The position numbers were made by a program, and so were the translations under genes. Shown here piece by piece: positions 1 through 17,548 of a DNA stretch of 64,000 bases; within the stretch, counting starts at the first letter, position 1; every line of letters begins with the position of its first letter. Source of the DNA: a phage; assembly GCA_036436775.1 (NCBI GenBank), contig GCA_036436775.1_3676.1, one strand, 5' to 3'. The notes beneath the pieces are model-generated. The model saw only the letters and a list, made by a program, of their open reading frames with translations. It had not been told where the DNA came from and searched no databases.

Positions 1-234
1 TATTTTTATACTTTACAATATAATCTTCGTTATCGTTGAATATCCAAAATGGATATTCTGCAAGGGCGGTACTTCCTCTTTCCTTTTTATCCTGGATCTT
101 GTTTACAATTAAAGCCGTAGCAATAGCGCCAATAATAAAACTAGCCCCGCTGATCATGTTACTTTCTCCTTTCATGGTGTTAGTAAATTATCTTTACAGA
201 TGTGGCCCTGCAGCCAGGACCACCGAAAAAATAA

Positions 235-480
235 CTATTTCACAATGCCTACAAAACAGATCCCGCCTTCACCTATATAAGCAATGTCGGTAATTTTATA
301 ATTTGTTAAGATCCGCGTATTCAGCTCGTTAATAAAATCGGTCATCGCGTTGGTGTAGTTGTCTTCCATGTCTAGGGAATAATCCCAGGTGTAAACCTTT
401 TTACGTCCGAAGCCTTTTACCATGATCCGGGCGCTTTTGGTGTTGGTGGGCGCATAGTATTTGGTAATTAGTGCTGCCAT
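235..480 (-). CDS. hypothetical early protein (81 aa)
   Basis: ORF in the co-directional minus-strand early array; GGAGG-type RBS before ATG at 480; promoter-like repeat directly upstream. Confidence 0.5.
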   Translation of the reverse strand: MAALITKYYAPTNTKSARIMVKGFGRKKVYTWDYSLDMEDNYTNAMTDFINELNTRILTNYKITDIAYIGEGGICFVGIVK

Positions 481-518
481 GGTTTTAACTCCTCATTAGT
501 TCAGTGTTAACAGTGTAA

Positions 519-548
519 AGTTTACTTTATTGATGGCCCTGGAGTCAA
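519..548 (-). promoter_or_regulatory. sigma70-like early promoter inside 47 bp repeat copy 1
   Basis: Minus strand reads TTGACT (543-548), 18 nt spacer, TAAACT (519-524); the -35 lies inside palindrome GATGGCC-N10-GGCCATC (532-555). Confidence 0.4.
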
Positions 549-566
549 GGCCATCTAAAAATAAAT

Positions 567-908
567 TTATTCGTTTTCTTCCAGTTCTGAAAGCTCTTCT
601 TTCACTTCCTCAAGCTCTGTCTGCAATTCCTGGTATTCTTCATCGTCCTCAATATCCAGGCTGTCGATGTAGTCGCTAAATCCGCAGCGGTAAGCGATAG
701 GATCTAGCTCCTTGAGGATACGCGACGGAAGAAAAGAAATGTTTCCGATCATAATTTCGCCGTAGATCTCGTCTAACCATTCATCATAGTTTTCGTCGTA
801 CTTGTCCTCGTCGATTTCAAAGTTATCGATCTTATTCTCAAGGTCTGCGATCTGTTTTTTCAGCGCGGCGATCTGCATGGCTTTTTCTGCGGCGGTCATA
901 GTAGTCAT
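567..908 (-). CDS. highly acidic coiled-coil protein (113 aa), candidate DNA-mimic or anti-restriction protein
   Basis: Strong D/E bias (DIEDDEEYQELQTELEEVKEELSELEENE), early location, RBS AAAAGGAGAA. Confidence 0.5.
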   Translation of the reverse strand: MTTMTAAEKAMQIAALKKQIADLENKIDNFEIDEDKYDENYDEWLDEIYGEIMIGNISFLPSRILKELDPIAYRCGFSDYIDSLDIEDDEEYQELQTELEEVKEELSELEENE

Positions 909-958
909 GGTGTTTTCTCCTTTTGTGTGTTCTGGGAAGTTTTCCCGTTGATGTGCTT

Positions 959-986
959 AGTATATCGATCTAAGTTAGCTTGTCAA
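959..986 (-). promoter_or_regulatory. sigma70-like early promoter
   Basis: Minus strand reads TTGACA, 16 nt spacer, TATACT, upstream of the CDS starting at 908. Confidence 0.4.
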
Positions 987-1106
987 TTAAAAATTTAAGA
1001 AAAATTTTGCAAAACTGTTAGCGCTACTCATCAACATTTGCGCCAGGATGTACCCAATGATGCAAACGATGATGGTTACCTTTGTGTGCTGGCGTGTAGT
1101 GCTCAT
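987..1106 (-). CDS. small membrane protein (39 aa), below the ORF-track length cutoff
   Basis: ATG at 1106 preceded by AAAGGAGG; translation MSTTRQHTKVTIIVCIIGYILAQMLMSSANSFAKFFLNF has one hydrophobic helix. Confidence 0.3.
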   Translation of the reverse strand: MSTTRQHTKVTIIVCIIGYILAQMLMSSANSFAKFFLNF

Positions 1107-1138
1107 CTTCAAGCCTCCTTTTTAGCTTAACTGGGATT

Positions 1139-1168
1139 AGTTTACTTTATTGATGGCCCTGGAGTCAA
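1139..1168 (-). promoter_or_regulatory. sigma70-like early promoter inside 47 bp repeat copy 2
   Basis: Same TTGACT-N18-TAAACT architecture as copy 1, embedded in palindrome 1152-1175. Confidence 0.4.
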
Positions 1169-1186
1169 GGCCATCTAAAAATAAAC

Positions 1187-1582
1187 TTAGTAAGTTTTCA
1201 GTACTTTCCCGTCCAGTCTGTCAAGCTGGATCTCGATAGCTGCAGAAAACCTATTATAAACCACATCGCCCATGGAGTCCAGCCAATCTATGACGTTATA
1301 CACCTGCTCTTTGTTCTTGCAAGTCCGGATCCGTTTCATTACGTAAGACGGATCAATATTAGTGCTCTCGTTGTTGTGGTCATGCGCCTGGCCTGCTGCA
1401 TTAGTTATAGATTTTACAACCACCTGAAAGGGCTTTAAGGTGCCTTTTGCGTTCATCTCACGCGCTTTTGCGGCGCGGTTGTTATATGTTACACAACGGC
1501 GGCAAATGTTGACTAAATGCATATCAATAATTTTTTCATCGTTTGCCAGTTCGTTCATGATGCGGCGTACGTTCTTATTCAT
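1187..1582 (-). CDS. hypothetical early protein (131 aa)
   Basis: ORF in early array with RBS; 8 bp-stem hairpin (1602-1620) in its leader. Confidence 0.55.
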   Translation of the reverse strand: MNKNVRRIMNELANDEKIIDMHLVNICRRCVTYNNRAAKAREMNAKGTLKPFQVVVKSITNAAGQAHDHNNESTNIDPSYVMKRIRTCKNKEQVYNVIDWLDSMGDVVYNRFSAAIEIQLDRLDGKVLKTY

Positions 1583-1630
1583 GATCTTTTTCCTTTGTGT
1601 TGGCGGGAAACATTCCCGCCTTTTGTGCCT

Positions 1631-1658
1631 AGTTTACTTTAATTTTGCAGCGTGTCAA
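1631..1658 (-). promoter_or_regulatory. sigma70-like early promoter
   Basis: Minus strand reads TTGACA (1653-1658), 16 nt spacer, TAAACT (1631-1636). Confidence 0.4.
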
Positions 1659-1668
1659 TAATTTTTTT

Positions 1669-2067
1669 TTATTCGTGGGCGCATGTCACAATGTGCTTTT
1701 TATACCCCAGGTGGGCAGCAAGTGCTGACAAAAACTCATCCTCATAGATCCAGCCGTTGGCAGTGATCCCCATAGCATTTAACGCGCTTTCAAGTGCTGC
1801 ATTGGCCTTATCATAACCGTGACCGCTCGCCTTGCCACCAGTATAACCGTACTTGTTGTTCTTGCTGTCGTGCATCCAAAAGACGCAATAATGAGTGTTA
1901 CCGCTGGAGGCGGCATAATACCGGATCTCGGCTACTTCGTGTAAATTATTATCATCGTCTAGGCCAACCAGATTATAAGCCTTGTAGAATCCCCGCTCAC
2001 GGCGGCAGTTCTTAACATCAGAAAAAGAGAAGTCAGCATTATCAAAATTAAAGGTTGTAGTTTTCAT
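1669..2067 (-). CDS. hypothetical early protein (132 aa)
   Basis: ORF with RBS AAGAGGA; no motif recognised. Confidence 0.55.
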   Translation of the reverse strand: MKTTTFNFDNADFSFSDVKNCRRERGFYKAYNLVGLDDDNNLHEVAEIRYYAASSGNTHYCVFWMHDSKNNKYGYTGGKASGHGYDKANAALESALNAMGITANGWIYEDEFLSALAAHLGYKKHIVTCAHE

Positions 2068-2099
2068 GATTTTATCCTCTTAGTGTCTTTTGTGATTTA

Positions 2100-2128
2100 A
2101 GTATATTTTGTGTCAGACTACATGTCAA
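2100..2128 (-). promoter_or_regulatory. sigma70-like early promoter
   Basis: Minus strand reads TTGACA (2123-2128), 17 nt spacer, TATACT (2100-2105). Confidence 0.45.
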
Positions 2129-2131
2129 TAT

Positions 2132-2329
2132 TTATTTTTTATTAAACCAGTGGTTGATCTGACCTTTTGTCAGGGCGCAACGGTTAAGCTGTTGCAGGGT
2201 ATAGCTATGACCGCGACGAAATTTATAAAGGCCTTGCCCGTTGTTGATGGTTACATCCACCAGGCAAACCACTTGATCGGTGACCACCTGGCGAGTGTTG
2301 CGACGTACTTTGATTCCGTATGCGTTCAT
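2132..2329 (-). CDS. hypothetical small protein (65 aa)
   Basis: ORF in early array. Confidence 0.4.
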   Translation of the reverse strand: MNAYGIKVRRNTRQVVTDQVVCLVDVTINNGQGLYKFRRGHSYTLQQLNRCALTKGQINHWFNKK

Positions 2330-2412
2330 GATTTTTTATCCTCTTTACTAGTTAGTGTGGTGTTGTTCACCTTGTAGGATAAGAATAGCAGGACTCCCCC
2401 GGTTGTCAACAA

Positions 2413-2590
2413 TTATTTTAAATTATTTTTATGATAGAATCCACCTGCCGCCGCCCCTACCAGGTTAACCATCATTTTTTCGTACTCTTCTTTATGTTCC
2501 AACGCTCCCGCCATAGCCTTTTCAACCAGGGCGATAGCCTCAGCGTCATTAATAGCTACATTTTCCAGGGGGGATCATATTACCTTTCAT
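2413..2590 (-). pseudogene. candidate small gene interrupted at a C6/G6 homopolymer (frameshift or sequencing indel)
   Basis: ATG at 2590 with RBS AGGAGGT; frame stops after 13 codons, but the +1 frame continues coding-like (LENVAINDAEAIALVEKAMAGALEHKEEYEKMMVNLVGAAAGGFYHKNNLK) from the G6 tract at 2568-2573. Confidence 0.25.
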
Positions 2591-2748
2591 TTTTGTACCT
2601 CCTCTTCAATTGTTACCTATCCTACAGTATAGGCCCACCAGGTTTACAAGCCTTCATTCTCTCCTACCTGGTCAGTTAGGTCCTGCCAGGCTGGCCCACC
2701 AGGTTGCAGCGGTTAGTGCATCAGGTTAGAAAAATTTTTTGAAAAGTG

Positions 2749-2777
2749 TTGACAGCGGCCCCGCCAGGTGGCACAAT
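2749..2777 (+). promoter_or_regulatory. possible plus-strand promoter reading into the noncoding repeat region
   Basis: TTGACA (2749-2754), 17 nt spacer, CACAAT (2772-2777), A/T-rich upstream. Confidence 0.25.
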
Positions 2778-2810
2778 ATACCTATCGAAAGGACGGAAGG
2801 CACCGGTGAC

Positions 2811-3020
2811 GGGGGAGACAACCACCGGGGATGGGCGCTGCATAAAATGAGAACGGTTATCATTATCATTTAAAAGTTTATGCAAAAAATCCTTGCTCTC
2901 TTTGTCCTGTGTGATACTATAATAACAAGCCGGGGCAACAGGGGCCGGGAGACAACCACCGGGCCTGCCCGTTATTCTGCAAACGAGAATGATTATCATT
3001 CAAAATTCTAAATGAGAACT
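2811..3020. repeat. two ~70 bp direct repeats, each carrying a Fur-box-like sequence
   Basis: Units share GAGACAACCACCGGG...GAGAA-G-TTATCATT; GAGAACGGTTATCATTATC (2849-2867) and GAGAATGATTATCATTCAA (2985-3003) match the 19 bp Fur box at 16/19 and 14/19. Confidence 0.4.
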
Positions 3021-3038
3021 CCTCGCATTTAATAAATT

Positions 3039-3056
3039 TAATTAGCATGCTAATTA
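3039..3056. promoter_or_regulatory. 18 bp perfect palindrome, candidate protein-binding site
   Basis: TAATTAGCATGCTAATTA is its own reverse complement; sits in AT-rich noncoding DNA. Confidence 0.3.
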
Positions 3057-3095
3057 CCCTCCGTAACAATTTCCTATAAAACAATACACCATAAA

Positions 3096-3570
3096 ATTTC
3101 CATATAGAAATTTTAAAAATCCATTTCTGAAAACGAAAAATCGATTTCGTCCCAAAAAATTTCAGGCCGAGAGCCGGAACGATTCCCAGAAAATCCGATT
3201 CAGAAAACGAAAAACAGATCGAGTACTGAGAAATTTATCGAGAAAAGTTTTCAGAAAATCAGAGCCCTGAAATGAAAAGTAGATCGAGTACCTGGAAATC
3301 CGCACCGTGACTTCAAGATAGTGGTTAGATTGTTACCATAGAAGGTCAAGGGTAAGTGGAGGAAGTTCTAGTAGAGGGATGTTAGCATGTGCGAGAAATC
3401 TGTAATGGTGGCCTGGAATATGGTGCAAACGATAGGATGGGTGATTCAGCTTGTCGCGCCCACTCTGAAAAAAATCCATTTTAGTTTTCGATCTATTTTC
3501 TGATTTTCTAAGAATTTTAAAATATCTGGCCCGGTGAAATATCAAAAGGAGGAAATCCATTTTAGAAATC
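3096..3570. repeat. AT-rich region of degenerate direct and inverted repeats (iteron-like), candidate origin or regulatory locus
   Basis: AAATCCATTTYWG recurs near 3121, 3469 and 3553; ~55 bp GAAAA-AGATCGAGTAC-GAAAT units near 3180-3290 with inverted relatives near 3480-3530; ORF-track ORFs here look spurious. Confidence 0.35.
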
Positions 3571-3605
3571 CCCCTTACACTTGATATGCCAGGAATTTTC
3601 AAGTA

Positions 3606-3935
3606 TCAGCTGTCTTTGTTTTTAGGTTTGTACATGCGCAGAGGTATGGTCTTTGTAACATTCCATTTCCTCAATCCTTCCCAGCTCCAGTTGTGGGCGT
3701 GGTATCCGGTTATGCATGCACTACTGGAGTGATCGTAAGCATAAGAGAACGCTAAGCGCACTAGGTGAGGCCAGTCCTTCCACGGTTGTGGTCCGTAAGC
3801 TTTTCTCCAACACCGACACAAACTAAATGTCTCAAGAATAGGCAGGATAACAAATCCATACACCGCCACCAGAATAGCCAGCGCAATGATTGTCAGGAAT
3901 ACATACCCTGCAGTTGAAACGATGATCTCCGTCAT
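3606..3935 (-). CDS. putative membrane protein (109 aa)
   Basis: N-terminal hydrophobic segment IVSTAGYVFLTIIALAILVAVYGFVILPIL. Confidence 0.45.
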   Translation of the reverse strand: MTEIIVSTAGYVFLTIIALAILVAVYGFVILPILETFSLCRCWRKAYGPQPWKDWPHLVRLAFSYAYDHSSSACITGYHAHNWSWEGLRKWNVTKTIPLRMYKPKNKDS

Positions 3936-4129
3936 TTGTCATCCCCTTTCTTATGAATATAGATGTGTGAGCCTGCCTGTATATAAATTTCTCGACCATC
4001 TTCTGAAAAGATGTGGAATACACGGTCACCTTCATACTCGATACGAGATATCTTCATAATAGTTTTTCCACCTGGAATACGGATCTCGTCACCTACAGCA
4101 ATGTTCCATGCGGATTTAAGCTTAAACAT
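3932..4129 (-). CDS. hypothetical protein (65 aa; start moved to internal ATG)
   Basis: ATG at 4129 preceded by AAAGGAGGG; the longer ORF-track start would overlap the upstream gene by 74 nt. Confidence 0.45.
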   Translation of the reverse strand: MFKLKSAWNIAVGDEIRIPGGKTIMKISRIEYEGDRVFHIFSEDGREIYIQAGSHIYIHKKGDDK

Positions 4130-4367
4130 CAGCACCCTCCTTTGGGAACTTAAACTCTGGCATAGCCATATACGCCACAACAGGGTTGTGATCAAAGTAG
4201 AACTGACCGTTAATTATCCCGGTTTTACTCACATAGTTACCAGATCCTGCAAGAACAACCTCGCAAGCTCCGAAATCTACATTGCCATCCTCATCAGCCA
4301 TGGCTACGATATACTTTCCAAGAGGCATGTTTTTAACGCCGTCTACAAATGTCCACTCTGTGTTCAT
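4122..4367 (-). CDS. hypothetical protein (81 aa)
   Basis: ORF tiling the early array. Confidence 0.5.
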   Translation of the reverse strand: MNTEWTFVDGVKNMPLGKYIVAMADEDGNVDFGACEVVLAGSGNYVSKTGIINGQFYFDHNPVVAYMAMPEFKFPKEGADV

Positions 4368-4376
4368 ACTTTACCC

Positions 4377-4709
4377 TTAAGGTAGCCAGTAAACAATCTC
4401 GCCTTTCAGCTTCATGTCGTTTCCAACATAAATTTCCCAGCCATCCATCTTAGCAACTGTAGGCCCAAAGTCATCAGCACCCCTTACCTCTTTCCAGGCT
4501 CCGTAGTCAGGTTGCCAGATATAGAATCCACCTTCTTTGTCCCATGCTCCGTACACTACGTTTAACAGGTTTCCCATTGCAACAATGGTGGGCCGTGGGA
4601 ATAATACATCTACAGATGCGCCACAATTTCGGGTATCTTTTAAGTTGCAATCCCAAAAGATATCTGCCAGTGTGGCGGCGATAGCTTTACGTCTTTCTAA
4701 TGTTACCAT
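4377..4709 (-). CDS. hypothetical protein (110 aa)
   Basis: ORF tiling the early array. Confidence 0.5.
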   Translation of the reverse strand: MVTLERRKAIAATLADIFWDCNLKDTRNCGASVDVLFPRPTIVAMGNLLNVVYGAWDKEGGFYIWQPDYGAWKEVRGADDFGPTVAKMDGWEIYVGNDMKLKGEIVYWLP

Positions 4710-4718
4710 ATATCATAC

Positions 4719-4910
4719 TCACTTGTTGTTAATAAGTTCTAAAACTTTCTGTCTTACTTTGTCAAGGTCTGTTGATTCAAAAACTGTGCGATATCCCCAA
4801 CTTTGCCCATAGGAGTGACTGCAATCTCCGTAACACCATTGCTCAATTTGATAGTATTCAAGGAACGGGTGCTGCCTGACTATGATACCGTCTCGATTAA
4901 AAATTACCAT
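4719..4910 (-). CDS. hypothetical protein (63 aa)
   Basis: ORF tiling the early array. Confidence 0.4.
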   Translation of the reverse strand: MVIFNRDGIIVRQHPFLEYYQIEQWCYGDCSHSYGQSWGYRTVFESTDLDKVRQKVLELINNK

Positions 4911-4973
4911 AATATATCCCTCTCTGCTAGTTTATGTTTGTATTATACACCGCAGTTTTCAGATGTCAACCTC

Positions 4974-5168
4974 TTACAGATTGCTCCAGTACAATCGGCA
5001 TTTACATTTTGGGCAATGAGGTTCTTTTATGTAATAACCGTCAGTCTTTGGAACACTTTTTGGTGCAGTTTTAACATTGTACCTGGTAAAACATCGGAAG
5101 CAGGTTACCTCTCCGATCTGTTGATCGTTGATCCACTCGCCAGAGTAAAGCTCTTTCTTGTTTCTCAT
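4974..5168 (-). CDS. small Cys-rich (zinc-ribbon-like) protein (64 aa)
   Basis: Start moved to ATG at 5168 with RBS GGAGAG; CxxC...CxxC pattern (CFRC ... CPKCKC). Confidence 0.4.
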   Translation of the reverse strand: MRNKKELYSGEWINDQQIGEVTCFRCFTRYNVKTAPKSVPKTDGYYIKEPHCPKCKCRLYWSNL

Positions 5169-5419
5169 AATTCTCTCCCAAATCCTCTGCAATCTTATAC
5201 CAAAATCTCCAGCCAGAAAGCACACGGGAACACTTTGAGGATTGAATCTTTACTTGGCTCGGAAGTTCTTTTTCCGTATGGCAGGTAGAAATACCCTCCT
5301 GCAGATTCGAATATAGCTCCTTCGGTTGTATCTACCACAGCAAGAATTAAGATTTTAGTCTCCACAGTGCTCTCCTCTCTCAGTTGTTGTGGAAACTATA
5401 TCACCTCAGAAGATGGTCG

Positions 5420-5878
5420 TCAACACTTTTTGTACCCCACCACGATCACATCAATGTCTGTGGTGGCAAGATTAATGACGTCTTCCACGTGTTCCCACTT
5501 TAGACCACCAATACCGCATCCGATTTTAGGAATGTAGAACGGTAATGACATACCTTTGAATACCTCGTTGACTCGCTCAAAGCCTTTCATGATTGAGAAG
5601 TATTCAGCATTTGGCCCTGGGTAGAACTGGGTATACAGGTTGATTCCATATACGACCCTGTTCTTGGCAAAATGCTCCCAACAAGAAAACATGCCCAGCT
5701 TGTCTAGATTACCATAAGCAGTCTCTTTGTCGGCTGCCAGTGCTTGAGGGAACTCACGGGCAATATCTTTCGCTATACCTGCACCCATTGTGTGAAAGCA
5801 GTTACAACCGTGGATCATGTGGCCTGACCCTTTCTTGAAAATGGAGATTAGATCTCCACCTATAGTATCAATAATCAC
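5420..5878 (-). CDS. macro-domain protein (ADP-ribose binding or hydrolysing)
   Basis: IIDTIGGDL...MIHGCNCFHTMGAGIAKDIA...IPKIGCGIGG resembles macro-domain glycine-rich motifs; probable GTG start at 5878 coupled to the upstream stop, RBS GAGGAG. Confidence 0.5.
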   Translation of the reverse strand: MIIDTIGGDLISIFKKGSGHMIHGCNCFHTMGAGIAKDIAREFPQALAADKETAYGNLDKLGMFSCWEHFAKNRVVYGINLYTQFYPGPNAEYFSIMKGFERVNEVFKGMSLPFYIPKIGCGIGGLKWEHVEDVINLATTDIDVIVVGYKKC

Positions 5879-6293
5879 GGTATGCCAGCTCCTCTTCCGC
5901 AATTTCAAAAAACTCAGTCCAGCACTGTGGCATATTGGAGTTACCGAAGTGGCTTTCATAGTAAAGGTTCTCACCACTCGGAAGATAGAAATCTGTTACC
6001 TCGTAGAATCCACAATCGTCGCACTCACCTTCTTCAAACTTGGCCTCAACCTTAATACCGAGGAAGGTGAAAAGTTTATGGATATCTTCAGTTTCGAACT
6101 CCCAGTGAATGTTGTTTTCCGCATCGGTGTAGAACTGGATCAGCAGACCATTGTCCAGTTTACCAAAATACTCTGTGAAGTAACTTCCTTCCCAGAAATC
6201 TTTATGACAAATAATATCCATGCGTTTGCCCATAATAATGGTGTGAGCGTTTTGGGCATCGTCACGAATCAGTTTTGGCATTTCATAGATCAT
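5868..6293 (-). CDS. hypothetical protein (141 aa)
   Basis: ORF in early array. Confidence 0.5.
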   Translation of the reverse strand: MIYEMPKLIRDDAQNAHTIIMGKRMDIICHKDFWEGSYFTEYFGKLDNGLLIQFYTDAENNIHWEFETEDIHKLFTFLGIKVEAKFEEGECDDCGFYEVTDFYLPSGENLYYESHFGNSNMPQCWTEFFEIAEEELAYRDY

Positions 6294-6361
6294 CTTAGTT
6301 CTCCGGGTTCAACAGGTGGTGGTGCTACAGGAAGATCATAAAACATGGCTATCACAGTCTC

Positions 6362-6559
6362 TTACACAGGAATTGCTTCAAATAGACCGTTATCTATACC
6401 GTCCTTCAGATAGAGATTATATTCTATGTCGGTATCTGTATAAAGGGCAGCATCCAGCATTCTATCTGTGAGTCCATCCATCGGGTGGAGAAACCACCAC
6501 CCACGCCAGTCAAAGTAACAGCCTGGTGCATCTTCTCTTACACGGATTCGATAAATCAT
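6362..6559 (-). CDS. hypothetical protein (65 aa)
   Basis: ORF in early array. Confidence 0.4.
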   Translation of the reverse strand: MIYRIRVREDAPGCYFDWRGWWFLHPMDGLTDRMLDAALYTDTDIEYNLYLKDGIDNGLFEAIPV

Positions 6560-6655
6560 GGGCAGTGGCCTCCTGTTAGCTATACATCCCAGTTTTCTTC
6601 GTTCATCGCGTCCTCCCGTTATATGAAGTTATAATTGCACACCTTTCAACCTGTG

Positions 6656-7072
6656 TCAACAGAAAACTTCAACAAATTCTTCCACAGTTTTAATGTCGTG
6701 GGAAAAAGGTTTACGGCTATAACGGGCAATAGCACTATCAACCACCGCCCGGTACTCAAGATCTTCAGAGTATTTCATGAAGCATTGTAGTGTTTCTGGA
6801 CAGATAGCCAGATAGCTCCACCACCCTTCATCAGATTGATAGTCAAATCCCATACTCTCCAACCATGAAGCATATACTCCAGCACCCTCAAGCCAGTGAG
6901 TATTTTCATCCAGAAACTTGTTAACAGACATGTGAGCTTCTAAGCACTTGTCCAGCTCTTTTCCGTTAACCAGCCACGCACTAACTGTGGCGCATCCAAG
7001 GTCTACAGATTGAGTTGACAGGTTGTATTGGTCATAGTTCTCAGGTTTAACAATGATATCTTCTAATGTCAT
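6656..7072 (-). CDS. hypothetical protein (138 aa)
   Basis: ORF in early array. Confidence 0.5.
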   Translation of the reverse strand: MTLEDIIVKPENYDQYNLSTQSVDLGCATVSAWLVNGKELDKCLEAHMSVNKFLDENTHWLEGAGVYASWLESMGFDYQSDEGWWSYLAICPETLQCFMKYSEDLEYRAVVDSAIARYSRKPFSHDIKTVEEFVEVFC

Positions 7073-7088
7073 TTTTCAGATCTCCTTA

Positions 7089-7119
7089 TGCAAAAATGCC
7101 CCACCCTTTCGGGCAGGGC
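7089..7119 (-). terminator. rho-independent terminator (hairpin family A, copy 1)
   Basis: On the minus strand GCCCTGCCCGAAAGGGTGGGGC is followed by ATTTTTGCA; 15 nt after the stop of the upstream CDS. Confidence 0.6.
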
Positions 7120-7134
7120 TATGTTAACTAATTG

Positions 7135-8361
7135 TTAAAAAGGGATGTCATCATCAAAGGAGTACTGTGCTGGATTCTGATCCATTGGGTCATCTTCCTC
7201 ATCATTTACAGGAGGAGCGTCTACAGTGTTTTGCTGTGGAGCTGCTTCCTGTTTGGCAGCCTGAGGTTCTTGATGGTCAGTTGACCCAGCACCGTTCTTG
7301 ATCCAATCGTACAACGGCTCAGCCAGATTAGTCAAGACATCTTTTGCTTCTGCAGTAATTGCCGCTGCAAAATCATCAACTTTCGTTTTCTTGTCAATAC
7401 GGCGACAAGCGTTCAACACCGCATTACCGACACTGGCACCTACTTCATCTTCAGTTCGGTTGGTGGCTTGAGCATACTCTTTCTTAAGCTCAATGGTGAC
7501 TACGTGCAGTGTTTTAGCCACGCCTAGTGGGTCGTCTACCTTAAACCCGCGATCCAGGATGATCTGCAACGCATTGATGCTATGCCCCGTCTCCACACCA
7601 ATAGGGTCGTAAGAGGATTTACGCTTGCCACCAGAACCTTGGGTGCCGTTCTCTGCCTTAGGTGGATAGGCTTTGAAACCACTGATAATGTTTCCGGTGT
7701 CTTTGTCAACAATGGCTGCAACACGACCACCTACCACCAGGTCTTTAAGCTGCTCATCCGTGACAACCATAGCACCTTCGCCGATCTTGTGGTCATTAAC
7801 AGTAACCACGTTGCCAACAATCTGAGTCACATCGCCATAGATGCGTAAAACGTCCTGATTGGCATTCTGCTGAGGTTTCTGCTTCTGACCTTGTGATTGT
7901 GCACCTTGTTGCTGTTTTTGCTGCTGAGTCGCTGCTGGAGCCTCTCCTGCACCCAGTTTGACCATCTTAGCCAGTGAGCCTTTGTAATAGGTCTTACCGT
8001 TATGCTCGTTTGCCTTCAAAGGAATATTTACGATCCATCCTGGCGTTACGGTTTCCCACTTGTCATCAATCTTAACAGAGACAGAGTCTTGATGACCAGG
8101 TTTAAGCAGCTTATCACCCATGCTGATCCAGACTTCTTCACCGCCTTGAAGCAGGTTATCAGAGGAATCCAGTTCAGAAATCAGTAAAGAGATGGTGTGG
8201 CTGGATTCAATTTTCTTACCTTGCCACACAGTGGTTTTAATACCTGTTGCAGGATCAGCCCCTTTAATAGGTTTGATGCTAACACGCTTGATCATACCGT
8301 GAGCCAGTAAAACAGTTTCACGCGGATTCATCGGGTTAGCGAATTGTTGAATAACGCTCAT
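7135..8361 (-). CDS. putative ssDNA-binding protein (T7 gp2.5-type functional analogue) with SSB-like acidic C-terminal tip
   Basis: Ends ...DEEDDPMDQNPAQYSFDDDIPF, identical to the E. coli SSB tip DDDIPF; Q/G/P-rich linkers; sits in a T7-like replisome cluster. Fold not recognised by eye. Confidence 0.45.
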   Translation of the reverse strand: MSVIQQFANPMNPRETVLLAHGMIKRVSIKPIKGADPATGIKTTVWQGKKIESSHTISLLISELDSSDNLLQGGEEVWISMGDKLLKPGHQDSVSVKIDDKWETVTPGWIVNIPLKANEHNGKTYYKGSLAKMVKLGAGEAPAATQQQKQQQGAQSQGQKQKPQQNANQDVLRIYGDVTQIVGNVVTVNDHKIGEGAMVVTDEQLKDLVVGGRVAAIVDKDTGNIISGFKAYPPKAENGTQGSGGKRKSSYDPIGVETGHSINALQIILDRGFKVDDPLGVAKTLHVVTIELKKEYAQATNRTEDEVGASVGNAVLNACRRIDKKTKVDDFAAAITAEAKDVLTNLAEPLYDWIKNGAGSTDHQEPQAAKQEAAPQQNTVDAPPVNDEEDDPMDQNPAQYSFDDDIPF

Positions 8362-8726
8362 TATTTGTCTCCTTGTTCTTCGTTAGTGTTTGCCGTGTGT
8401 GCAAACCCTGCTTGAATTAATTTGTCCTGAACTTGAGCCAACAGGCCCATTGCAAAACTTGTGGTCCCAGAGAGGGCCATCAACATATCTCGTTGTTGAG
8501 CTACCCAACCTAAGGCATAGTCCAAACGACGATATTTTTCTTCTTCACGCAGAGCCTGAAATAATTGTTCAGCCTCCGGTTGTTGTGTGAGCTCCTGAAG
8601 TCTTCCCATGAAAGAAGAAAGCACTAGCAAAAGAGACACTTGATCTTTACTTAACCCTAAGAAAAATTCTTGAGGTTGTTCTTGCTCGTTCATCGCAACC
8701 GACTCTTGATCGTTCATTTGTTCCAT
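8361..8726 (-). CDS. hypothetical protein (121 aa)
   Basis: Start codon overlaps the neighbouring gene boundary (coupled). Confidence 0.5.
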   Translation of the reverse strand: MEQMNDQESVAMNEQEQPQEFFLGLSKDQVSLLLVLSSFMGRLQELTQQPEAEQLFQALREEEKYRRLDYALGWVAQQRDMLMALSGTTSFAMGLLAQVQDKLIQAGFAHTANTNEEQGDK

Positions 8727-8809
8727 TATGGAATCTCCGATTTTATTTGAACAACATAGAAGGAGACACTATTTTAGCATCCCCTTCTGTAAATTACAAT
8801 AGGTATTTG

Positions 8810-9055
8810 TTAGCCAATCACTTCGAAAGTTCCCCAATTCCCGTCCAGCAGGCAGGTGATCGGATCCCCATCGTCGTCAAAGATTTCAAAGTTTTCAGCA
8901 TCCAGGATGTGGCCCTCGAACACAATACTTTCGTCGCCACCACCAGAGATAACAGCGTATTCCTTACCTTGAGTCAAGTTTTGACACCCTTTGCCACCAA
9001 AACCTACTTCAACACAACGTACTTTCTGTCCTGCGCGAGCAACTGCTTCAGCCAT
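8810..9055 (-). CDS. hypothetical protein (81 aa)
   Basis: ORF in array. Confidence 0.45.
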   Translation of the reverse strand: MAEAVARAGQKVRCVEVGFGGKGCQNLTQGKEYAVISGGGDESIVFEGHILDAENFEIFDDDGDPITCLLDGNWGTFEVIG

Positions 9056-9072
9056 CTTAAGGTCTCCTGATA

Positions 9073-9393
9073 TTAATCGTTAAGTTCAAAATAGATTTTA
9101 ACAGCTTCATCGAAGATTGGAATCCCGATGTTGTTGATAAGCTGCCAAACTACCATATCTTTACCTGGATCTGGGAGAATGTCAACCTTTCTCCATGCGC
9201 TGTATACCCAGTTCGGACCGCCTTCTGCACTAACTGGCAGATTTTCACCAGCTTCCTGTAGATACTTATGCAGCAAAAGATATTCTGGATACTCTAGAAC
9301 ACTGTCCTCTGTAGTATATAGCAGTTCACGGTATACTTTTAAGAACCCTGCTGGGGTAATGTTTTCAGTCTTCATTTGCCGCTTCTCCTGCAT
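9073..9393 (-). CDS. hypothetical protein (106 aa)
   Basis: ORF in array. Confidence 0.5.
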   Translation of the reverse strand: MQEKRQMKTENITPAGFLKVYRELLYTTEDSVLEYPEYLLLHKYLQEAGENLPVSAEGGPNWVYSAWRKVDILPDPGKDMVVWQLINNIGIPIFDEAVKIYFELND

Positions 9394-9757
9394 TCATCAG
9401 ATCTGCCATAGCGTCACCAACGAAGAGGACAACCACATCGTTGACAGCGTCAGCATCATCTTTGTTGACGTTGCTGAATTTAGGACACACAGCAATGATC
9501 ATGTAAACACCATTACCAACCTGAACTGTCCGTGTGGTGCACATCATGGCGGTATTTGTACCTTCTTTGAAAGCGAAGCCTTGAAGACGCTCCTCCAAAG
9601 TGTTACCGGTAGATTTCAGAAGCGCCAGCTCGTCCAGGGCATAGATGATATCTCCGGAAGTTAGTGTTGCCTTGCCATCAGACACCATAATCACTCCATC
9701 AGCGCCATCAAGCTTAGAGGCTTCAAAGATATCAATATCCCAAATATTTTTCATCAC
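9365..9757 (-). CDS. hypothetical protein (130 aa)
   Basis: ORF in array. Confidence 0.5.
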   Translation of the reverse strand: MMKNIWDIDIFEASKLDGADGVIMVSDGKATLTSGDIIYALDELALLKSTGNTLEERLQGFAFKEGTNTAMMCTTRTVQVGNGVYMIIAVCPKFSNVNKDDADAVNDVVVLFVGDAMADLMNAGEAANED

Positions 9758-10026
9758 GCTTCCTCATCATCTAAGTAATCATCAAGAGAGGTGAAGATTT
9801 CACCGAAGTATTCTAAGATTTCTAGCTCACGTGTGGTGCAGCAAACATAATCGCCTTGGTCGTCCTTAATAGTGGCCTCTTTACCCAGAATATCTACTTC
9901 AAGTTCATCGTTCAACAGGACGGCCCCTGTGTAAACTTTGTCAGCTGTGCAGTCACGAAAAGCAGAGTCCTTCTCCAGATAGCCTGGCTTAACCTTGGCT
10001 TTAATTCGTTGGTATTGTTTGGTCAT
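9754..10026 (-). CDS. small acidic protein, paralog A (90 aa)
   Basis: Shares KPGY/KPEC...AF(R/K)DCT...KDD(Q/E)GD...CT with the next gene. Confidence 0.5.
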   Translation of the reverse strand: MTKQYQRIKAKVKPGYLEKDSAFRDCTADKVYTGAVLLNDELEVDILGKEATIKDDQGDYVCCTTRELEILEYFGEIFTSLDDYLDDEEA

Positions 10027-10090
10027 TGCTGTGGTCCCCCTTTCGTTTTGATAGGGCCATTATATTAGGCCATATCACTGTTGTCAAGTA

Positions 10091-10345
10091 TTAATGTTCA
10101 GTTTTTACAAAAACTACTTCGTTAACAGTGCACCAGACAGAGTCTCCTTCATCATCTTTAAAGGTAAGGCACTGTGCTGAGTTTTCCAGCTCATCAAGCT
10201 CTTCTTGTGATAGAGGGGCCCCTTCTTCCAAAAGGGCTTTTACCAAAGGGTTATCACAAAACTCTGCTTCATAAATAGCGCCAAGTGTGCAATCTTTAAA
10301 AGCTCGGTCGTTTGCAACGCATTCTGGTTTCAACATGATTTTCAT
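10091..10345 (-). CDS. small acidic protein, paralog B (84 aa)
   Basis: Paralog of 9754-10026. Confidence 0.5.
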   Translation of the reverse strand: MKIMLKPECVANDRAFKDCTLGAIYEAEFCDNPLVKALLEEGAPLSQEELDELENSAQCLTFKDDEGDSVWCTVNEVVFVKTEH

Positions 10346-10421
10346 CTTGGAGGTCTCCTTAATTATTTAACAATCAATGCTCTGTTTGTGGGAAGTATCT
10401 TACATCTAACCTTACTTCTTG

Positions 10422-10820
10422 TCAACGACTATTTTCAATCATCCACCAAGGATCAAGGTAGGTTTGTTGACTTTTTGCCCACTGGCAAACATCTTCGTAC
10501 ATCTGAACTTCGTTTTCAGTCAGTTCGCGAATAGGCTCATCTATACCCTCATTTTTGTGGTAATCCCAGCTGGCATCGATTTCCCATAGCCACGGTTTGT
10601 TATTTCCACGTTTACGCACACAGAAGTCACCAGGACGGCCTGCCAATGCATTTAAGAACTCGTTCTCCGCTCGCTCCTGAAGAATACTAAGGAGCAAAAC
10701 GTTGGAGCATGACCGTAAAATATGCTTCAGCTCGCAGTCATCAATCTCAACTTCAATACGTTGTTTGACTGTGTGGGTACCTTTTACTAACATCCTACCT
10801 CCTCTAAACGAACTCTGCAA
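10422..10820 (-). CDS. hypothetical protein (132 aa; start may be the internal Met)
   Basis: ORF in array. Confidence 0.45.
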   Translation of the reverse strand: MQSSFRGGRMLVKGTHTVKQRIEVEIDDCELKHILRSCSNVLLLSILQERAENEFLNALAGRPGDFCVRKRGNNKPWLWEIDASWDYHKNEGIDEPIRELTENEVQMYEDVCQWAKSQQTYLDPWWMIENSR

Positions 10821-10998
10821 GAGTTGTGTTGTTCACTGCACCGCAGTAAATGGAGTATCCCAGCCCATTAGAGTGCAGAAACCACGGCGTGCCGAAATTA
10901 TCTTTCACGTAGACATCGCCGTTGTTTGTAAAGGGCCAATATTCTTCACCAAGGGTAAAATACCTATTCATACCTTCAGCAAGATACTTTACTTTCAT
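10804..10998 (-). CDS. hypothetical protein (64 aa)
   Basis: ORF in array. Confidence 0.35.
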   Translation of the reverse strand: MKVKYLAEGMNRYFTLGEEYWPFTNNGDVYVKDNFGTPWFLHSNGLGYSIYCGAVNNTTLAEFV

Positions 10999-11222
10999 AG
11001 GTCCTCTTCAACAACTACAAACTTGGCAAGCAAAGTGGTTCCGTAGATATGATACTCACCGTTTGCCAGGTGAGAGATATACCAGGCAACCCCTTCCTCG
11101 TCTTTAATCATTTTGTTTGCACGAGCTTTATCGTAATAAACCTCGTAGGTCTTTCCTTCTTTAAAGAATGACAGGTCTGTCATCTTTTCTTCTACAAAGG
11201 TAGCTTTAACCAAAGTCGTCAT
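10995..11222 (-). CDS. hypothetical protein (75 aa)
   Basis: ORF in array, coupled stop/start. Confidence 0.45.
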   Translation of the reverse strand: MTTLVKATFVEEKMTDLSFFKEGKTYEVYYDKARANKMIKDEEGVAWYISHLANGEYHIYGTTLLAKFVVVEEDL

Positions 11223-11593
11223 TGATCGGTCTCCCTCTTGTTAAGTCTGAATACTGCAATAATAGCATTCCCAAGGTGCAGTGTCAAGTCATTTCCAAGA
11301 TACCACAGCATCCCACGGTCATCTTTAATGAAAGGGTAACAATCTGGTGCCTTCCAGACATTGTACACTTTCCCAACCTGAAAGAAATCAGGCCCTGTTG
11401 GGATTTTGGTACCAGGCCACACTTGAGATACCTGAACACACTCCACCTGCATAATAACAGGAATAGTCATGGATGTAAATGTTTTTGTTGGTTCTACTAC
11501 CATAAAAGTTTCCTCTTTGCTTAACAGCACCTCCCTGTGCTGATAGTTTACATTAGTGACAATCACCCCAGTTACGACCACACAAGTATTCAC
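11219..11593 (-). CDS. hypothetical protein (124 aa; 5' end uncertain)
   Basis: ORF-track start overlaps polymerase exon 2 by 41 nt, so the true start is probably internal. Confidence 0.4.
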   Translation of the reverse strand: MNTCVVVTGVIVTNVNYQHREVLLSKEETFMVVEPTKTFTSMTIPVIMQVECVQVSQVWPGTKIPTGPDFFQVGKVYNVWKAPDCYPFIKDDRGMLWYLGNDLTLHLGNAIIAVFRLNKRETDQ

Positions 11594-11906
11594 CTGTGAT
11601 CTGGAACGGGACTCCCATCATTTTAGAAGCTTGCCAGAAGCAATGCACCACCATTTCACCTACAGGGCTCCAGATAAGTTCAAGCTTTCCGTCATCGTTC
11701 AGGATAGGATCGTACACCGTGTTTCCGTCTCTGTCAACCACTTCGTTTCCGTCCTCATCCTTGCGTGCTTTTTTGTACTTATGACCGTCGAACACATGAA
11801 GTTTGGCCTCCTGCTCTGCCTTAAATGCTTCCAGTTCTTCAATTGTGTCGAAGGTGTACACAGTCTTATACTTCGGTGTGTCAGGGACTTGAAGTTGGTA
11901 CTCATC
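11553..11906 (-). CDS. DNA polymerase (family A), exon 2
   Basis: Begins DEYQLQV (completes motif C xHDE) and ends GRNWGDCH, the typical Pol A C-terminus (compare T7 ...GPNWAICH); boundary +/- a few nt. Confidence 0.7.
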   Translation of the reverse strand, partial: DEYQLQVPDTPKYKTVYTFDTIEELEAFKAEQEAKLHVFDGHKYKKARKDEDGNEVVDRDGNTVYDPILNDDGKLELIWSPVGEMVVHCFWQASKMMGVPFQITGEYLCGRNWGDCH

Positions 11907-12242
11907 CAATAGTTCAGGTAGGTCGTTAAGCTACCCCGCACCATTACGTGCATAGCCATACGTTTTCACGTAGGATCGGACCATCTCATATTCCTATGAT
12001 AAGCAACCACAGGAATCCTCCCATTTCGACCGCACTTGCTGGTCTACTTCCTTTCGGAATGGCCTCTGAGCGTTCGCTCTTTTGAGCGCTTCGTTGCGGA
12101 TTACCTTGCCATAAGGTTTAGGCTTCCCGCAGTTAAAGAGGTTATTCGACATAGATTACTCTATGAAGCCACAATGTTATTTATGGTAATAAATAATACG
12201 GCGAACACCTTCATCGTACCACCCACGCTTCACCATTTGGTG
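11907..12242 (-). mobile_element. group I intron (ORF-less, ~336 nt) in the DNA polymerase gene
   Basis: Minus strand carries core elements in order: P AACTGCGGGAAGCC (12121-12134), Q AATCCGCAAC (12093-12102), R-like GTAGACCAGC (12038-12047), S GAGATGGTCCGATCC (11974-11988); stop codons in all frames; ends in G. Confidence 0.6.
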
Positions 12243-14606
12243 GTGCATGAGTATCCCAACTAAGTCACACAGCGATGCACCACCATTCTGTTGGTATGCA
12301 TTAAGTAAAGAGTGTTTAGATCGGGTCCAGATAGCATGACCATCAAAAGAGTAGATAAACTTCTTACCAGTTGCTTCCCAGAATTTCTCCAGATCCTCTT
12401 TGCGCCCCTTAAGACCGGGGTTGGCATCCCAAAGCGCATCGATTACCCTTTGTCCCAACTCTGGAGAGATGTCCAGCATATCTGCAACTTTATCTTTTTG
12501 TGCCCCGTACATAACCCCATACGTGATAGGTTTACCGTCGTTACGGGACACCTCTCTACCTGCTACTTTCGTATATGCCTCAGCATTGTTTTGGTGTGCA
12601 TCTCCGTTACTTACAACATCGTAATACAGGCCGTTGTCGAACTCAAAGGCACCCCAAGCCCCGATAAGCTGCTCTAAGTTGGACCCGTCAATACCGATCT
12701 CAAAGTATCCTGGAGGAACACCCCACAAGCTACGCATCTCTTTACCCATAACCACTTTAGGAGATGGTTTAGGCATGTTTGCACAAATACTGTGTTTCTG
12801 TCTGGAAGTGTTTGTCAGCCCAGAACTTTTAGCAGGAAGCTTATGGTCAATCTTCAAACGTGGGTGATTAAGAAGACCAGTATCAACCTTATCCTCCTTG
12901 ATTGGATCAAGGACCGATCTGCGGTTTCGCAATGATAACCACAAGACGATATCTTTAGCCATCTCTCCGTTCAATTTTTCAAGATTCGGACACAGGTGTC
13001 CAAACGTATCTTTCAGTTGCGGAGAAGTAATAAGTGCTCTGGCTTTTCTACGTATTTTCCCGAATACTTCCTTTTTAATCCTTTCAGAGTTAGGAAAGCT
13101 TCGGAACTTGTGCACAGTTGTCTGGAACTTGGCATCAGTTTTGTTCCAGAAGTTGATAATCAGGTCACAATACTCTGACTCTAAAAGCTCGTCCATATAT
13201 GCATATACTCGTGCATCAACATCCGCATCAGGTAGAGCTTTCTTCTTGCTATCTTTAGTTACATCTTTAGTTCTCCACATTGTCGGTAGCCAGCCAGCAC
13301 TGATCAGATACCGCTTAATGTCGTCCTGATTGCTGATTTTCATAGGTATCTTGCAGTCCGGCATTCGCTTCTGCTGTAGATCACTTATTGCCTGATCCAT
13401 CAGCTCTTTAGGCAAAGGGTGGGGTGTGGAAGTGCCCTTAATATAGCCTCTCAAGAAATCAGCCATCTTATCGGGGTCTTTGCAGCCCATCTCTTCACAC
13501 CATTTTATCCCTATCTTGCTGACATCCCCTGTAGAGGTAAATGCTCGCTTAGGCGGGGCTTTGAACTCTAAAGCGCTCATGTCTACAGGATAGCCAAGCT
13601 TATCTTTTAACCATTTCCAACCATTATTAGAGATTGTCCCGTCTTGGTTAAACGGCTTTTCAGGGAACTTGGGCCGCTGAGACATTGACAGCTCTTTTAA
13701 AGGCAGCTGTGGTTCAACACGATCAGCGATTTCTTTCATCCACGCATCGCAACGGTCACGTAAAGCAATAGCTCCATCTATGTCGAAGTATACACCCTGA
13801 CGGGCCTGCAGCTCCATCAGGAAGTGCTGCAGCATGCCTCGACGTAGTGCGTTCTTCCAGGTGATCTTCTTGAACCCTTTCGGCTTCTCTTTGGCTGGAT
13901 CGTACATAAAGTTCTGCATGTCAGATTTGCCGTAGAATACACCTTTTGATTCCGCTACCAGCTCTTTCCAGAGCAGCTCCTGGATGATAACGTCCTCGAA
14001 TACACGATCCACATACTTCCACAACGGAAGATCGCGCCAGTCATCAATTTGAACTTTCTGGTTACCAAGGGCGTAGCCCCATGCCATAAGGCCGTGAGGA
14101 CCAACGGGCTGCATTTTCTTAGTAACCGGGTTGAATACAGAATCCGGACAACCTTTTGGTAAAGGGCGATCAGGCCACAAGATTCGGCTCATCGCCAACG
14201 TATCAAACAGATTAACCTGGTGGTCGTTGATAGTCCCCATACACTTAGGGTCACGGAACATATCAAAATGAATACCGGATAATCTTTCCATCAGCATAAA
14301 GTCATAACTGTAGCAGTTATGGCAGTTCAAAGCTGTTGGTGACCAGTCAGAATTTCCTGTAAGCCAACCTTCCAACTCCGAAAAATCTGCTATGCGAACT
14401 TCAAAATCTTTATAAAGAGTTTTCTTTGCCAGAATAAAGTTCTTAGCCTTCTCTATATCCTCTTCAGAGTAGTGTGTGCGGTCATTTAGAGGAAGGAACA
14501 GCATAAAACGGTTCTTATTCAGCTCTTTAAACAAGCCGCAGTGATAATAAAGATCTAGGTCTTCTAGTAAACCAGAGGCCTCAAGGTCGAAAGACCACAT
14601 ACTCAT
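12243..14606 (-). CDS. DNA polymerase (family A, T7/Pol I-like, with 3'-5' exonuclease), exon 1
   Basis: Exo I FDLEASG near the N-terminus; motif B RNDGKPITYGVMYGAQ; ends ...LVGILMH just before the intron (ORF track reads 22 codons into the intron). Confidence 0.8.
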
Positions 14607-14664
14607 ATACAGTTCTCCTTAAAGGGGAGGCGGTTGTACTACCCCTCCCACTCTTGGTTAAACA

Positions 14665-16743: not shown

Positions 16744-17497
16744 TAATTCTGCTCCTTACTACAGGCTCGTTTGCTAAGAATACGGCTTTTGCCCAGCCAC
16801 GGGGTGTGAGGCTTCGGATCATCTTCGTCCTTGCACTTTTTCCACCTAGCTTAGCGTGTTGCATGGAATAACCGCTAACCACATCAACTATTTGCGGGAC
16901 AGGTTTTGTGGCCGGGATTATAAATCCATTACCTATCCATCCGCAAGTTATTTTTGGATAGGCATCGCGTGGAGCTATAAATTCAGGAAACCATGGGTTT
17001 ACATCATCTTCCGGTAAATACCCGCCATAATCAGAAGGGTGAAAACGGTAGTCAGGTTTGCGCCACAATGTGGACATAACTCCAACAGGGTTCTCTACAT
17101 GCCACGGGCAATCGTAAATCTCTCCCAACTCTTCTGCAACCCGAGCATCCTTTACAGCATTAATTTGGATCAGCGGATCCTTAGCCAGTTTCTTCTTAAA
17201 GTGTGCAGCACCGGACACCGCTAAGTGAGTGCACGGAGGAAATGCAAGAACAAAGTCCGGAGCTGGGTACATGCAGAAAGTTTCCTGAGGAAACCATGGA
17301 TCAATCCAATAATCTACATAGTGAATATTTGGATGATCGGTTATCACCTCTGCATAACTGCCGTGGTCAGCACCTTCTGCGTTAAAGCACAGGCACAGAT
17401 ACCCAGCTTTTGCCCAGTCAATGACTGCACCTCCAGACCCGTCAAATAGACTCCACACAACACCTTTGTGGTAGTGCTCTTTATAGATAAATTTCAA
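16733..17497 (-). CDS. DNA cytosine-C5 methyltransferase-like protein (compact, ~254 aa)
   Basis: Motif I WSLFDGSGG, PC motif AFPPCTHLAVSG, ENV motif VENPVG; start moved to TTG at 17497 (RBS AGGAGA) because the ORF-track GTG lies inside the terminator hairpin. Confidence 0.5.
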   Translation of the reverse strand: MKFIYKEHYHKGVVWSLFDGSGGAVIDWAKAGYLCLCFNAEGADHGSYAEVITDHPNIHYVDYWIDPWFPQETFCMYPAPDFVLAFPPCTHLAVSGAAHFKKKLAKDPLIQINAVKDARVAEELGEIYDCPWHVENPVGVMSTLWRKPDYRFHPSDYGGYLPEDDVNPWFPEFIAPRDAYPKITCGWIGNGFIIPATKPVPQIVDVVSGYSMQHAKLGGKSARTKMIRSLTPRGWAKAVFLANEPVVRSRINGK

Positions 17498-17511
17498 TTT
17501 GCTGTCTCCTA

Positions 17512-17542: not shown

Positions 17543-17548
17543 CTAGTG

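Follow-up and report, generated by a model that had tools for sequence, protein, structure and literature searches.

The locus analysed here raised one question: does a small macro-domain protein encoded by a phage remove ADP-ribose placed by a host defence, and if so, from which substrate and with which active site? The window, i.e. the whole stretch of DNA analysed (64,000 nucleotides), corresponded to a Vequintavirus (rV5-like myovirus), and the 1.4 kb around the gene were 99.1% identical to Escherichia phage FV3. The initial annotation had described an early protein with macro-domain-like motifs and had proposed it as a candidate anti-defence ADP-ribosyl hydrolase. As judged from sequence comparison, the product is best explained as an ADP-ribosyl glycohydrolase of the T4 Tk.4/AdfM family, composed of a macro domain alone (an “orphan”). 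By analogy with its characterized relatives, this protein probably removes DarT2-type thymidine-linked ADP-ribose from phage DNA, through a glutamine-dependent mechanism like that of SCO6735. The macro-domain annotation of the gene is already public, and a function has already been reported for its family.

Gene, start codon and transcription unit

The open reading frame of about 150 amino acids placed at 5420-5878 in the initial annotation proved exact in its coordinates, with 152 amino acids; its strand, which had not been given, was the minus strand. The gene, its ribosome binding site and the gene upstream were as follows:

5420..5878, minus strand: macro-domain coding sequence, 152 amino acids plus stop, with the GTG start at 5878..5876 and the TGA stop at 5422..5420.
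5894..5889, minus strand: ribosome binding site GAGGAG, read from the sequence, with a 10-nt spacer to the GTG and located within the 3' end of the 141-aa gene.
5868..6293, minus strand: upstream gene of 141 amino acids, phrog_8157 (function not assigned), with a pI of 4.3 and a net charge of -20.

The GTG at 5878 was supported as the start of the protein, since the homologs begin at the same codon: it was also GTG in FV3, A51.2 and C9, and the equivalent codon was ATG in Krischvirus Brandy (MIIDTV...) and in T4 Tk.4 (MIVKYIKGD...). The mechanical open reading frame runs back to another GTG at 5977 (185 amino acids). This longer version was dropped, because the T4, Krischvirus and other Vequintavirus homologs begin at the MII/MIV codon corresponding to 5878, the GAGGAG precedes 5878, and the extension had no homolog support. 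The GTG had also been said to overlap the upstream stop: the two frames do overlap by 11 nt, but the stop codon itself (TGA at 5870..5868) is not covered by the GTG.

The 141-aa gene is probably co-transcribed and translationally coupled with the macro gene, since it shares its last 11 nt with the beginning of the macro gene. This linkage was not conserved, because the two genes are 9 kb apart in Krischvirus. A “split DarG”, in which the acidic 141-aa protein would represent the DNA-mimicking C-terminal domain of DarG, was unsupported: the Krischvirus homolog lies at that distance from tk.4 and there was no Pfam hit. The 141-aa gene was also compared with T4 vs, the gene preceding tk.4, and showed no similarity to it (E 31). 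All ten neighbouring genes belonged to PHROGs without assigned function, and only one of them had a Pfam match (a phage zinc-binding domain).

Three putative transcription signals were located around these genes:

6631..6659, minus strand: sigma-70-like promoter (TTGACA, 17-nt spacer, AATTAT, extended TG), pattern match only.
7098..7119, minus strand: intrinsic-terminator-like hairpin and T run after the 408-aa gene, pattern match only.
5395..5423, minus strand: sigma-70-like promoter (TTGACG, 17-nt spacer, TATAGT, extended TG), pattern match only.

The promoter at 6659..6631 was the nearest intergenic candidate for the 65-aa gene, the 141-aa gene and the macro gene, and the hairpin at 7119..7098 would bound the upstream transcription unit; the two pattern matches suggest a unit composed of these three genes. 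The macro gene and the two small genes upstream of it would probably be transcribed by the host RNA polymerase from this sigma-70-type promoter. The promoter at 5423..5395 overlaps the macro stop codon with its -35 box; its predicted target is the small gene that follows (5195..5365). Using a strict threshold (at least 10 of 12 matches, scored per strand over larger regions), 14 sigma-70-like sites were found on the coding strand in the first part of the window (1-12 kb) vs. 2.0 +/- 1.3 in shuffles, and 1 on the other strand; with a loose threshold in the 3-10 kb region there was no enrichment (15 sites vs. 12.2 +/- 3.5). The excess of strict sites fits, and does not prove, transcription of the small-gene cluster by the host polymerase, and so early in infection. 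Literature searches on Vequintavirus macro domains, Vequintavirinae sensitivity to DarTG and rV5 early transcription retrieved nothing specific.

NCBI already had an identical protein, named “macro domain-containing protein”, on a contig of an E. coli assembly, a contig that is probably the phage itself. Orthologs of the gene were FV3_00191 in FV3 and, as deduced from synteny, bas54_0092 in Bas54; the latter was recognized because its region has the same succession of gene lengths (417, 198, 426, 459, 171, 195, 192, 333 and 246 nt) and repeats the 11-nt overlap. The labels existing in GenBank were diverse: “phosphatase” (FV3_00191), “macro domain protein” (A51.2), “Poa1p-like family protein” and “contains A1pp phosphatase motif”.

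Family, fold and class

The protein was 39% identical to T4 Tk.4 over the full length (153 columns, E 2e-42, BLASTP) and 65.6% identical to the product of the Krischvirus gene located at the canonical tk.4 locus, between vs and tk, and labelled tk.4 in JSE. The best match was phrog_335 in all cases: the protein under study (E 3e-58), T4 Tk.4 (1e-65), Krischvirus Tk.4 (1e-61) and PhiKZ gp104 (8e-43). On these sequence similarities, the gene is a clear relative of tk.4 and a full-length member of the T4 Tk.4/AdfM family (phrog_335). Both the T4 protein and the Vequintavirus protein consist of a single macro domain of about 150 amino acids carrying the family signature (HGCNC...MGAG, NxYTQ and PxIGxG), and they have the core motifs HGCNCFHTMG(A/S)G, NLYTQF-PGPN-EY and P(K/R)IG-GIG in common; both genes overlap the upstream gene at their start, and both are non-essential on K-12. 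They differ in the phages that carry them (Straboviridae vs. Vequintavirinae), in their neighbours (vs and tk in T4, genes without assigned function here), and in that an anti-DarTG2 phenotype is known only for T4.

This phenotype comes from the HIDEN-SEQ preprint, in which tk.4 was the only T4 gene whose depletion on a DarTG2 host reached significance and its clean knockout made T4 sensitive to DarTG2; the gene was named adfM, for anti-DarT factor macrodomain, and the evidence for it is genetic only (bioRxiv 10.1101/2025.11.20.689424). The biochemical evidence belongs to PhiKZ gp104, also named AdfM, a chimallivirus DarG2-like antitoxin which strips DarT2-made ADP-ribose off DNA and rescues cells from DarT2 toxicity, and whose activity is reduced by mutation of the asparagine of the first loop (N23A) (PMC13309987). 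PhiKZ AdfM resembles the protein under study in being a phage orphan macro domain of the same PHROG, with the first-loop asparagine conserved and a 97% hhalign probability against the family profile. The differences are its low identity (22%), a DarG-type lysine (FPTK) where the Vequintavirus protein has a glutamine, and its import into the phage nucleus, a structure that, to our knowledge, Vequintaviruses do not form. The initial proposal of an anti-defence function was in this way supported by homology with two proteins, one of them known from a knockout and the other from DNA de-ADP-ribosylation. A comparable strategy is represented by AdfN, a phage NADAR orphan antitoxin acting against DarTG1, in which an antitoxin eraser domain alone reverses DarT-made DNA ADP-ribosylation; AdfN differs in having the unrelated NADAR fold, acts specifically on guanine-linked ADP-ribose and gives no protection from DarTG2 (PMC11825919).

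A macro fold, anticipated from the initial annotation, was found both by profiles and in a structural model. Residues 22-134 matched positions 1-117 of the 118 in the Pfam Macro model (PF01661; 26 bits vs. a cutoff of 22, E 9.7e-6). The AF2 model, built with 80 homologs as input, reached a pLDDT of 95.4 and a pTM of 0.90. Foldseek comparison of this model with the PDB retrieved TARG1, the DarG proteins of T. aquaticus and M. tuberculosis, Poa1p, BT1257 and SCO6735 (probability 1.0, TM 0.7-0.8), and the top 15 matches were all TARG1, DarG or Poa1p macro domains. Human TARG1/OARD1 (PDB 4j5r and 4j5s), similar in size, was the top structural match (E 1e-9, TM 0.73-0.80). The family profile matched BT1257, SCO6735, DarG, TARG1 and Poa1p with E values from 1e-14 to 4e-12; coronavirus nsp3 macro domains reached 2e-3 only, and MacroD-type domains were likewise far behind. 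The fold ranking repeated the order of the profiles. Based on profiles and a predicted structure, the protein was placed in the ALC1-like macro class (TARG1/DarG/SCO6735/Poa1p; class name as in PMC9411070), since both searches put the TARG1/DarG/SCO6735 group ahead of MacroD/nsP3.

The presence of yeast Poa1p among these matches might suggest a metabolic enzyme instead, i.e. an ADP-ribose 1''-phosphate phosphatase or an O-acetyl-ADP-ribose deacetylase clearing NAD-derived by-products during infection. The family profile matched Poa1p with an E value of 4e-12 and Poa1p was among the top fold matches; furthermore, two features recall Poa1p residues named in the mutant PDB entries 6lfs and 6lft: the HxCNC motif is reminiscent of His23, and the Ser/Thr preceding the first glycine-rich loop of Ser30. 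The phage protein has the histidine of HxCNC and a threonine at the Ser30 position. Three of the GenBank labels (“phosphatase”, “contains A1pp phosphatase motif” and “Poa1p-like”) go in the same direction, but they represent similarity transfer and not experiment. The matches to DarG, SCO6735, BT1257 and TARG1 were equal or better; NxYTQ was not common to Poa1p, its invariant TQ being common to the DNA-ADP-ribose hydrolase SCO6735; the T4 ortholog has an anti-DarTG2 phenotype; and there was no obvious source of ADP-ribose 1''-phosphate among the neighbouring genes. A metabolic function of this kind was considered improbable, and the erasure of DarT2-type marks from DNA was preferred.

Active site and probable substrate

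The glycine-rich, macro-like motifs pointed out in the initial annotation were indeed present; two of them, the motif HGCNCFHTMGAGIA (residues 23-36) and PKIGCGIGG (residues 117-125), were the most conserved parts of the family. Together with a third motif, they form the putative active site:

5771..5812, minus strand: motif HGCNCFHTMGAGIA, the first glycine-rich loop, including Asn26.
5627..5641, minus strand: motif NLYTQ, residues 80-84, including Gln84.
5504..5530, minus strand: motif PKIGCGIGG, the second glycine-rich loop, which by analogy with other macro domains would bind the diphosphate.

Fourteen positions were invariant in 80 family members: G24, N26, C27, M31, G34, A36, D50, N80, Y82, T83, Q84, P117, G120 and G122. 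In the alignments, from which the active site was deduced, Asn26 is equivalent to Asn27 of SCO6735 and to the PhiKZ AdfM asparagine mutated in N23A; Gln84 aligned with SCO6735 Gln85, DarG Lys80 and TARG1 Lys84; Gly122 is equivalent to SCO6735 Gly128, and Gly124 occupies the position of TARG1 Asp125. The sequences around the catalytic column were NLYTQF in the phage protein, NFPTKK in M. tuberculosis DarG, LITKK in TARG1 and NMIGQH in SCO6735. The Lys/Asp dyad of TARG1 was absent, because its two positions (Lys84 and Asp125) were occupied by Gln84 and Gly124.

DarG (PDB 5m31, 5m3e and 5m3i) was a natural candidate for the identity of the protein: both have the macro fold and the ADP-ribose-binding loops, DarG was the best match in NCBIfam and in the defence library (PADLOC), and both are expected to reverse the same modification. 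In the NCBIfam model (NF048014), the protein scored 43.8 bits vs. a cutoff of 250 and covered positions 9-143 of 338 only. It differs from DarG in lacking the C-terminal DarT-binding domain (152 amino acids vs. a model of about 338 positions). No DarT gene was present among the ten neighbouring genes, and the catalytic lysine (Lys80 in T. aquaticus DarG) was replaced by the family-invariant Gln84. The assignment as DarG was dropped for these three reasons (domain, DarT neighbour and lysine). The name AdfM spans two active-site types, since PhiKZ AdfM keeps the lysine (FPTK) and the Tk.4-type proteins have the glutamine: in sequence terms, the two phage proteins bearing it are a lysine type in PhiKZ and a glutamine type in T4 Tk.4, to which the protein under study also belongs.

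A precedent for the glutamine type is SCO6735 (PDB 5e3b), which lacks both TARG1 catalytic residues and yet cleaves ADP-ribose off thymidine in DNA; activity is lost in the Q85A mutant, almost lost in N27S and lowered in G128E (PMC9411070). In the profile alignment to 5e3b (residue numbers corrected for a 20-residue tag offset), N26, Q84 and G122 fell on N27, Q85 and G128. SCO6735 and Bacteroides BT1257 (2fg1) are stand-alone proteins of the same class with a glutamine at the lysine position (NMIGQ vs. NLYTQ) and the asparagine and glycine partners conserved. They differ from the phage protein in being bacterial chromosomal proteins and in their low identity (about 21-24% in fold alignments); SCO6735 is, in addition, described as DNA-damage inducible, and it has a longer mobile loop with Lys89 and Lys94 that was not evident in the phage protein. 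Considering sequence and analogy together, the chemistry is most likely of the SCO6735 type rather than of the DarG type. Catalytic activity in a protein lacking the DarG/TARG1 lysine is inferred from the analogy with SCO6735, at about 21% identity in the fold alignment.

The absence of the canonical catalytic lysine is also what a non-catalytic ADP-ribose binder would show: a reader, or a sponge for ADP-ribose-derived immune signals such as the Thoeris messengers. The macro domain of a type II Thoeris effector binds His-ADPR, an example of macro domains acting as sensors (review PMC13434031). Three observations go against a binder and make it very improbable: the Asn, Gln and Gly needed in the glutamine-type catalysis of SCO6735 were family-invariant, the catalytically active PhiKZ AdfM matched the family at 97% probability in profile alignment, and a sponge function is reported for no member of the family.

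Under the preferred reading, an active eraser of DarT2-type marks, the macro protein would bind the ADP-ribose put by a DarT2-type toxin on thymidine of single-stranded phage DNA. Asn26 would hold Gln84 in such a way that the distal ribose is oriented for water attack, with no participation of a Lys/Asp dyad. Hydrolysis of the bond between ribose and base would restore replicable DNA and neutralize a DarTG2-type abortive defence. That the Vequintavirus protein acts like T4 Tk.4, PhiKZ AdfM and SCO6735 is what we infer from these analogies. The literature searches retrieved no report of a Vequintavirus mutant challenged with DarTG2.

The protein might also be an active ADP-ribosyl hydrolase whose main substrate is ADP-ribosylated protein or RNA, and not DarT2-modified DNA; the source of the modification would then be a different ADP-ribosylating defence toxin, or NAD-using enzymes of the phage itself. 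Two of the nearest relatives in structure, TARG1 and SCO6735, act on protein-linked ADP-ribose as well (PMC9411070). Stand-alone bacterial homologs exist with no DarT nearby. One of them, a chromosomal family member from Pelagimonas, had neither DarT in its vicinity nor a prophage signature, a context that was uninformative as evidence of anti-defence function; chromosomal members of this kind imply that the substrate range of the family may exceed the products of DarT2. The spread of the family over 2807 phage records could likewise mean a general role, not specific to DarT. Against this, the sole genetic phenotype of a close member is the specific loss of DarTG2 resistance in T4 tk.4, a single significant screen hit. 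As for the phage's own enzymes, a gene for a “sirtuin domain NAD-dependent deacetylase” exists in Bas54, but it lies about 50 kb away and on the opposite strand, and no ADP-ribosyltransferase was present beside the macro gene, whose neighbours all belong to PHROGs without assigned function. We know of no sirtuin gene in T4, which also counts against the version based on the phage's own NAD enzymes. Overall, protein or RNA as the main substrate was judged unlikely.

Distribution, selection and biological meaning

The 1.4 kb around the macro gene matched 119 phage records with at least 80% identity, and in 117 of these the match extended over 80% or more of the query. The count for the window's DNA polymerase gene was 121 records. 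The macro locus was nearly universal in Vequintavirus (about 117-119 of 121 records), as deduced from these two counts. When the 459-bp gene was queried alone, megablast retrieved only 48 records, indicating that the gene is more diverged than its flanks. Using tblastn, a homolog was found in 2807 of the 50,697 phage records (about 5%). The gene was under purifying selection, with dN/dS values of 0.06 with respect to A51.2, 0.14 with respect to C9 and 0.12 with respect to Brandy. The open reading frame is not a chance one, as indicated by the Pfam and phrog_335 matches, the number of homolog-bearing records and the low dN/dS (0.06-0.14).

The Bas54 ortholog is non-essential on K-12, where 31 of its 31 TA sites were hit; dispensability is the behaviour expected from an accessory counter-defence gene. 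The text of the HIDEN-SEQ preprint gives no phenotype for bas54_0092 in the clinical isolates screened, and a DarTG2 screen of the Bas54 library is not described there (10.1101/2025.11.20.689424).

A broader interpretation, tentative and rather unlikely, is that the Tk.4-type proteins constitute a separate glutamine-type lineage of phage macro-domain erasers, mechanistically distinct from the lysine type of DarG and PhiKZ AdfM and broad-spectrum against several ADP-ribosylating defences. If so, this lineage would be present in about 5% of the sequenced phage genomes; its members, like SCO6735, might take both DNA-linked and protein-linked ADP-ribose as substrate; and an arms race still under way would account for the macro gene having diverged more than its flanks among Vequintaviruses. 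The distinction between the lysine and glutamine types of AdfM matters when mechanism or substrate range is extrapolated from DarG. The rV5-like phages (Vequintavirus) have a broad host range on E. coli and are of interest for therapy. Carrying a nearly universal, dispensable eraser of the AdfM type, Vequintaviruses would be predicted to resist DarTG2-type defence.

Acidic neighbour of the macro-domain gene

The gene directly upstream of the macro gene, which encodes the 152-aa macro-domain protein, overlaps it and is probably translationally coupled to it:

5868..6293, minus strand, gene for a 141-aa protein

With a pI of 4.3 and a net charge of -20, the product is a very acidic protein, a property that it shares with DNA-mimic proteins. 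Krischvirus also carries a homolog (35% identical), but there it adjoins dam, 9 kb away from tk.4, the macro-gene homolog.

The 90%-identity protein cluster containing the 152-aa macro protein also includes many members of 141 aa, the length of this upstream neighbour; these are possibly a clustering artefact of fused or overlapping gene calls. Sixteen public records labelled “Campylobacter phage” (MG0656xx; for example, L004 and C9) were up to about 97% identical in DNA to E. coli Vequintaviruses, both in the stretch around the macro gene and in the gene for DNA polymerase. Among them at least one (C9, L004) is flagged UNVERIFIED and lacks annotation, and the attribution of these records to a Campylobacter host looks doubtful.

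Promoter-like sites and gene orientation

Near-consensus sigma-70 matches were strongly over-represented on the coding (minus) strand; counted in window positions 1..32000, they numbered 14 in 1-12 kb (about 2-3 expected) and 13 in 12-32 kb (about 2-3 expected). Two pattern matches were perfect TTGACA-N16/17-TATAAT sites:

4969..4942, minus strand, perfect site
10087..10059, minus strand, perfect site

A mini-ORF with its own ribosome-binding site (GGGAGGA) lies downstream of the promoter-like site at 6659..6631 and ahead of the 65-aa gene:

about 6579..6605, minus strand, 8 codons, MNEENWDV

Sigma-70-like sites of the plus strand cluster in a block of plus-strand genes, the rest of the window being transcribed on the minus strand:

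about 28200..35000, plus strand, gene block; two of its ORFs encode 396 and 493 aa

A 408-aa protein with an SSB-like tail

One further minus-strand gene encodes a protein that matched nothing in Pfam, nor in the PDB by sequence:

7135..8361, minus strand, gene for a 408-aa protein (phrog_4477)

A Gln/Gly-rich linker precedes its C-terminus, SFDDDIPF, which is the tip of the E. coli SSB C-terminus; DDDIPF followed by a stop occurs only here in the window. The syntenic gene of the Vequintavirus Bas54, bas54_0087, is essential by score. The 408-aa protein may be the phage's own SSB, or an SSB-tail mimic that recruits host SSB-binding proteins.
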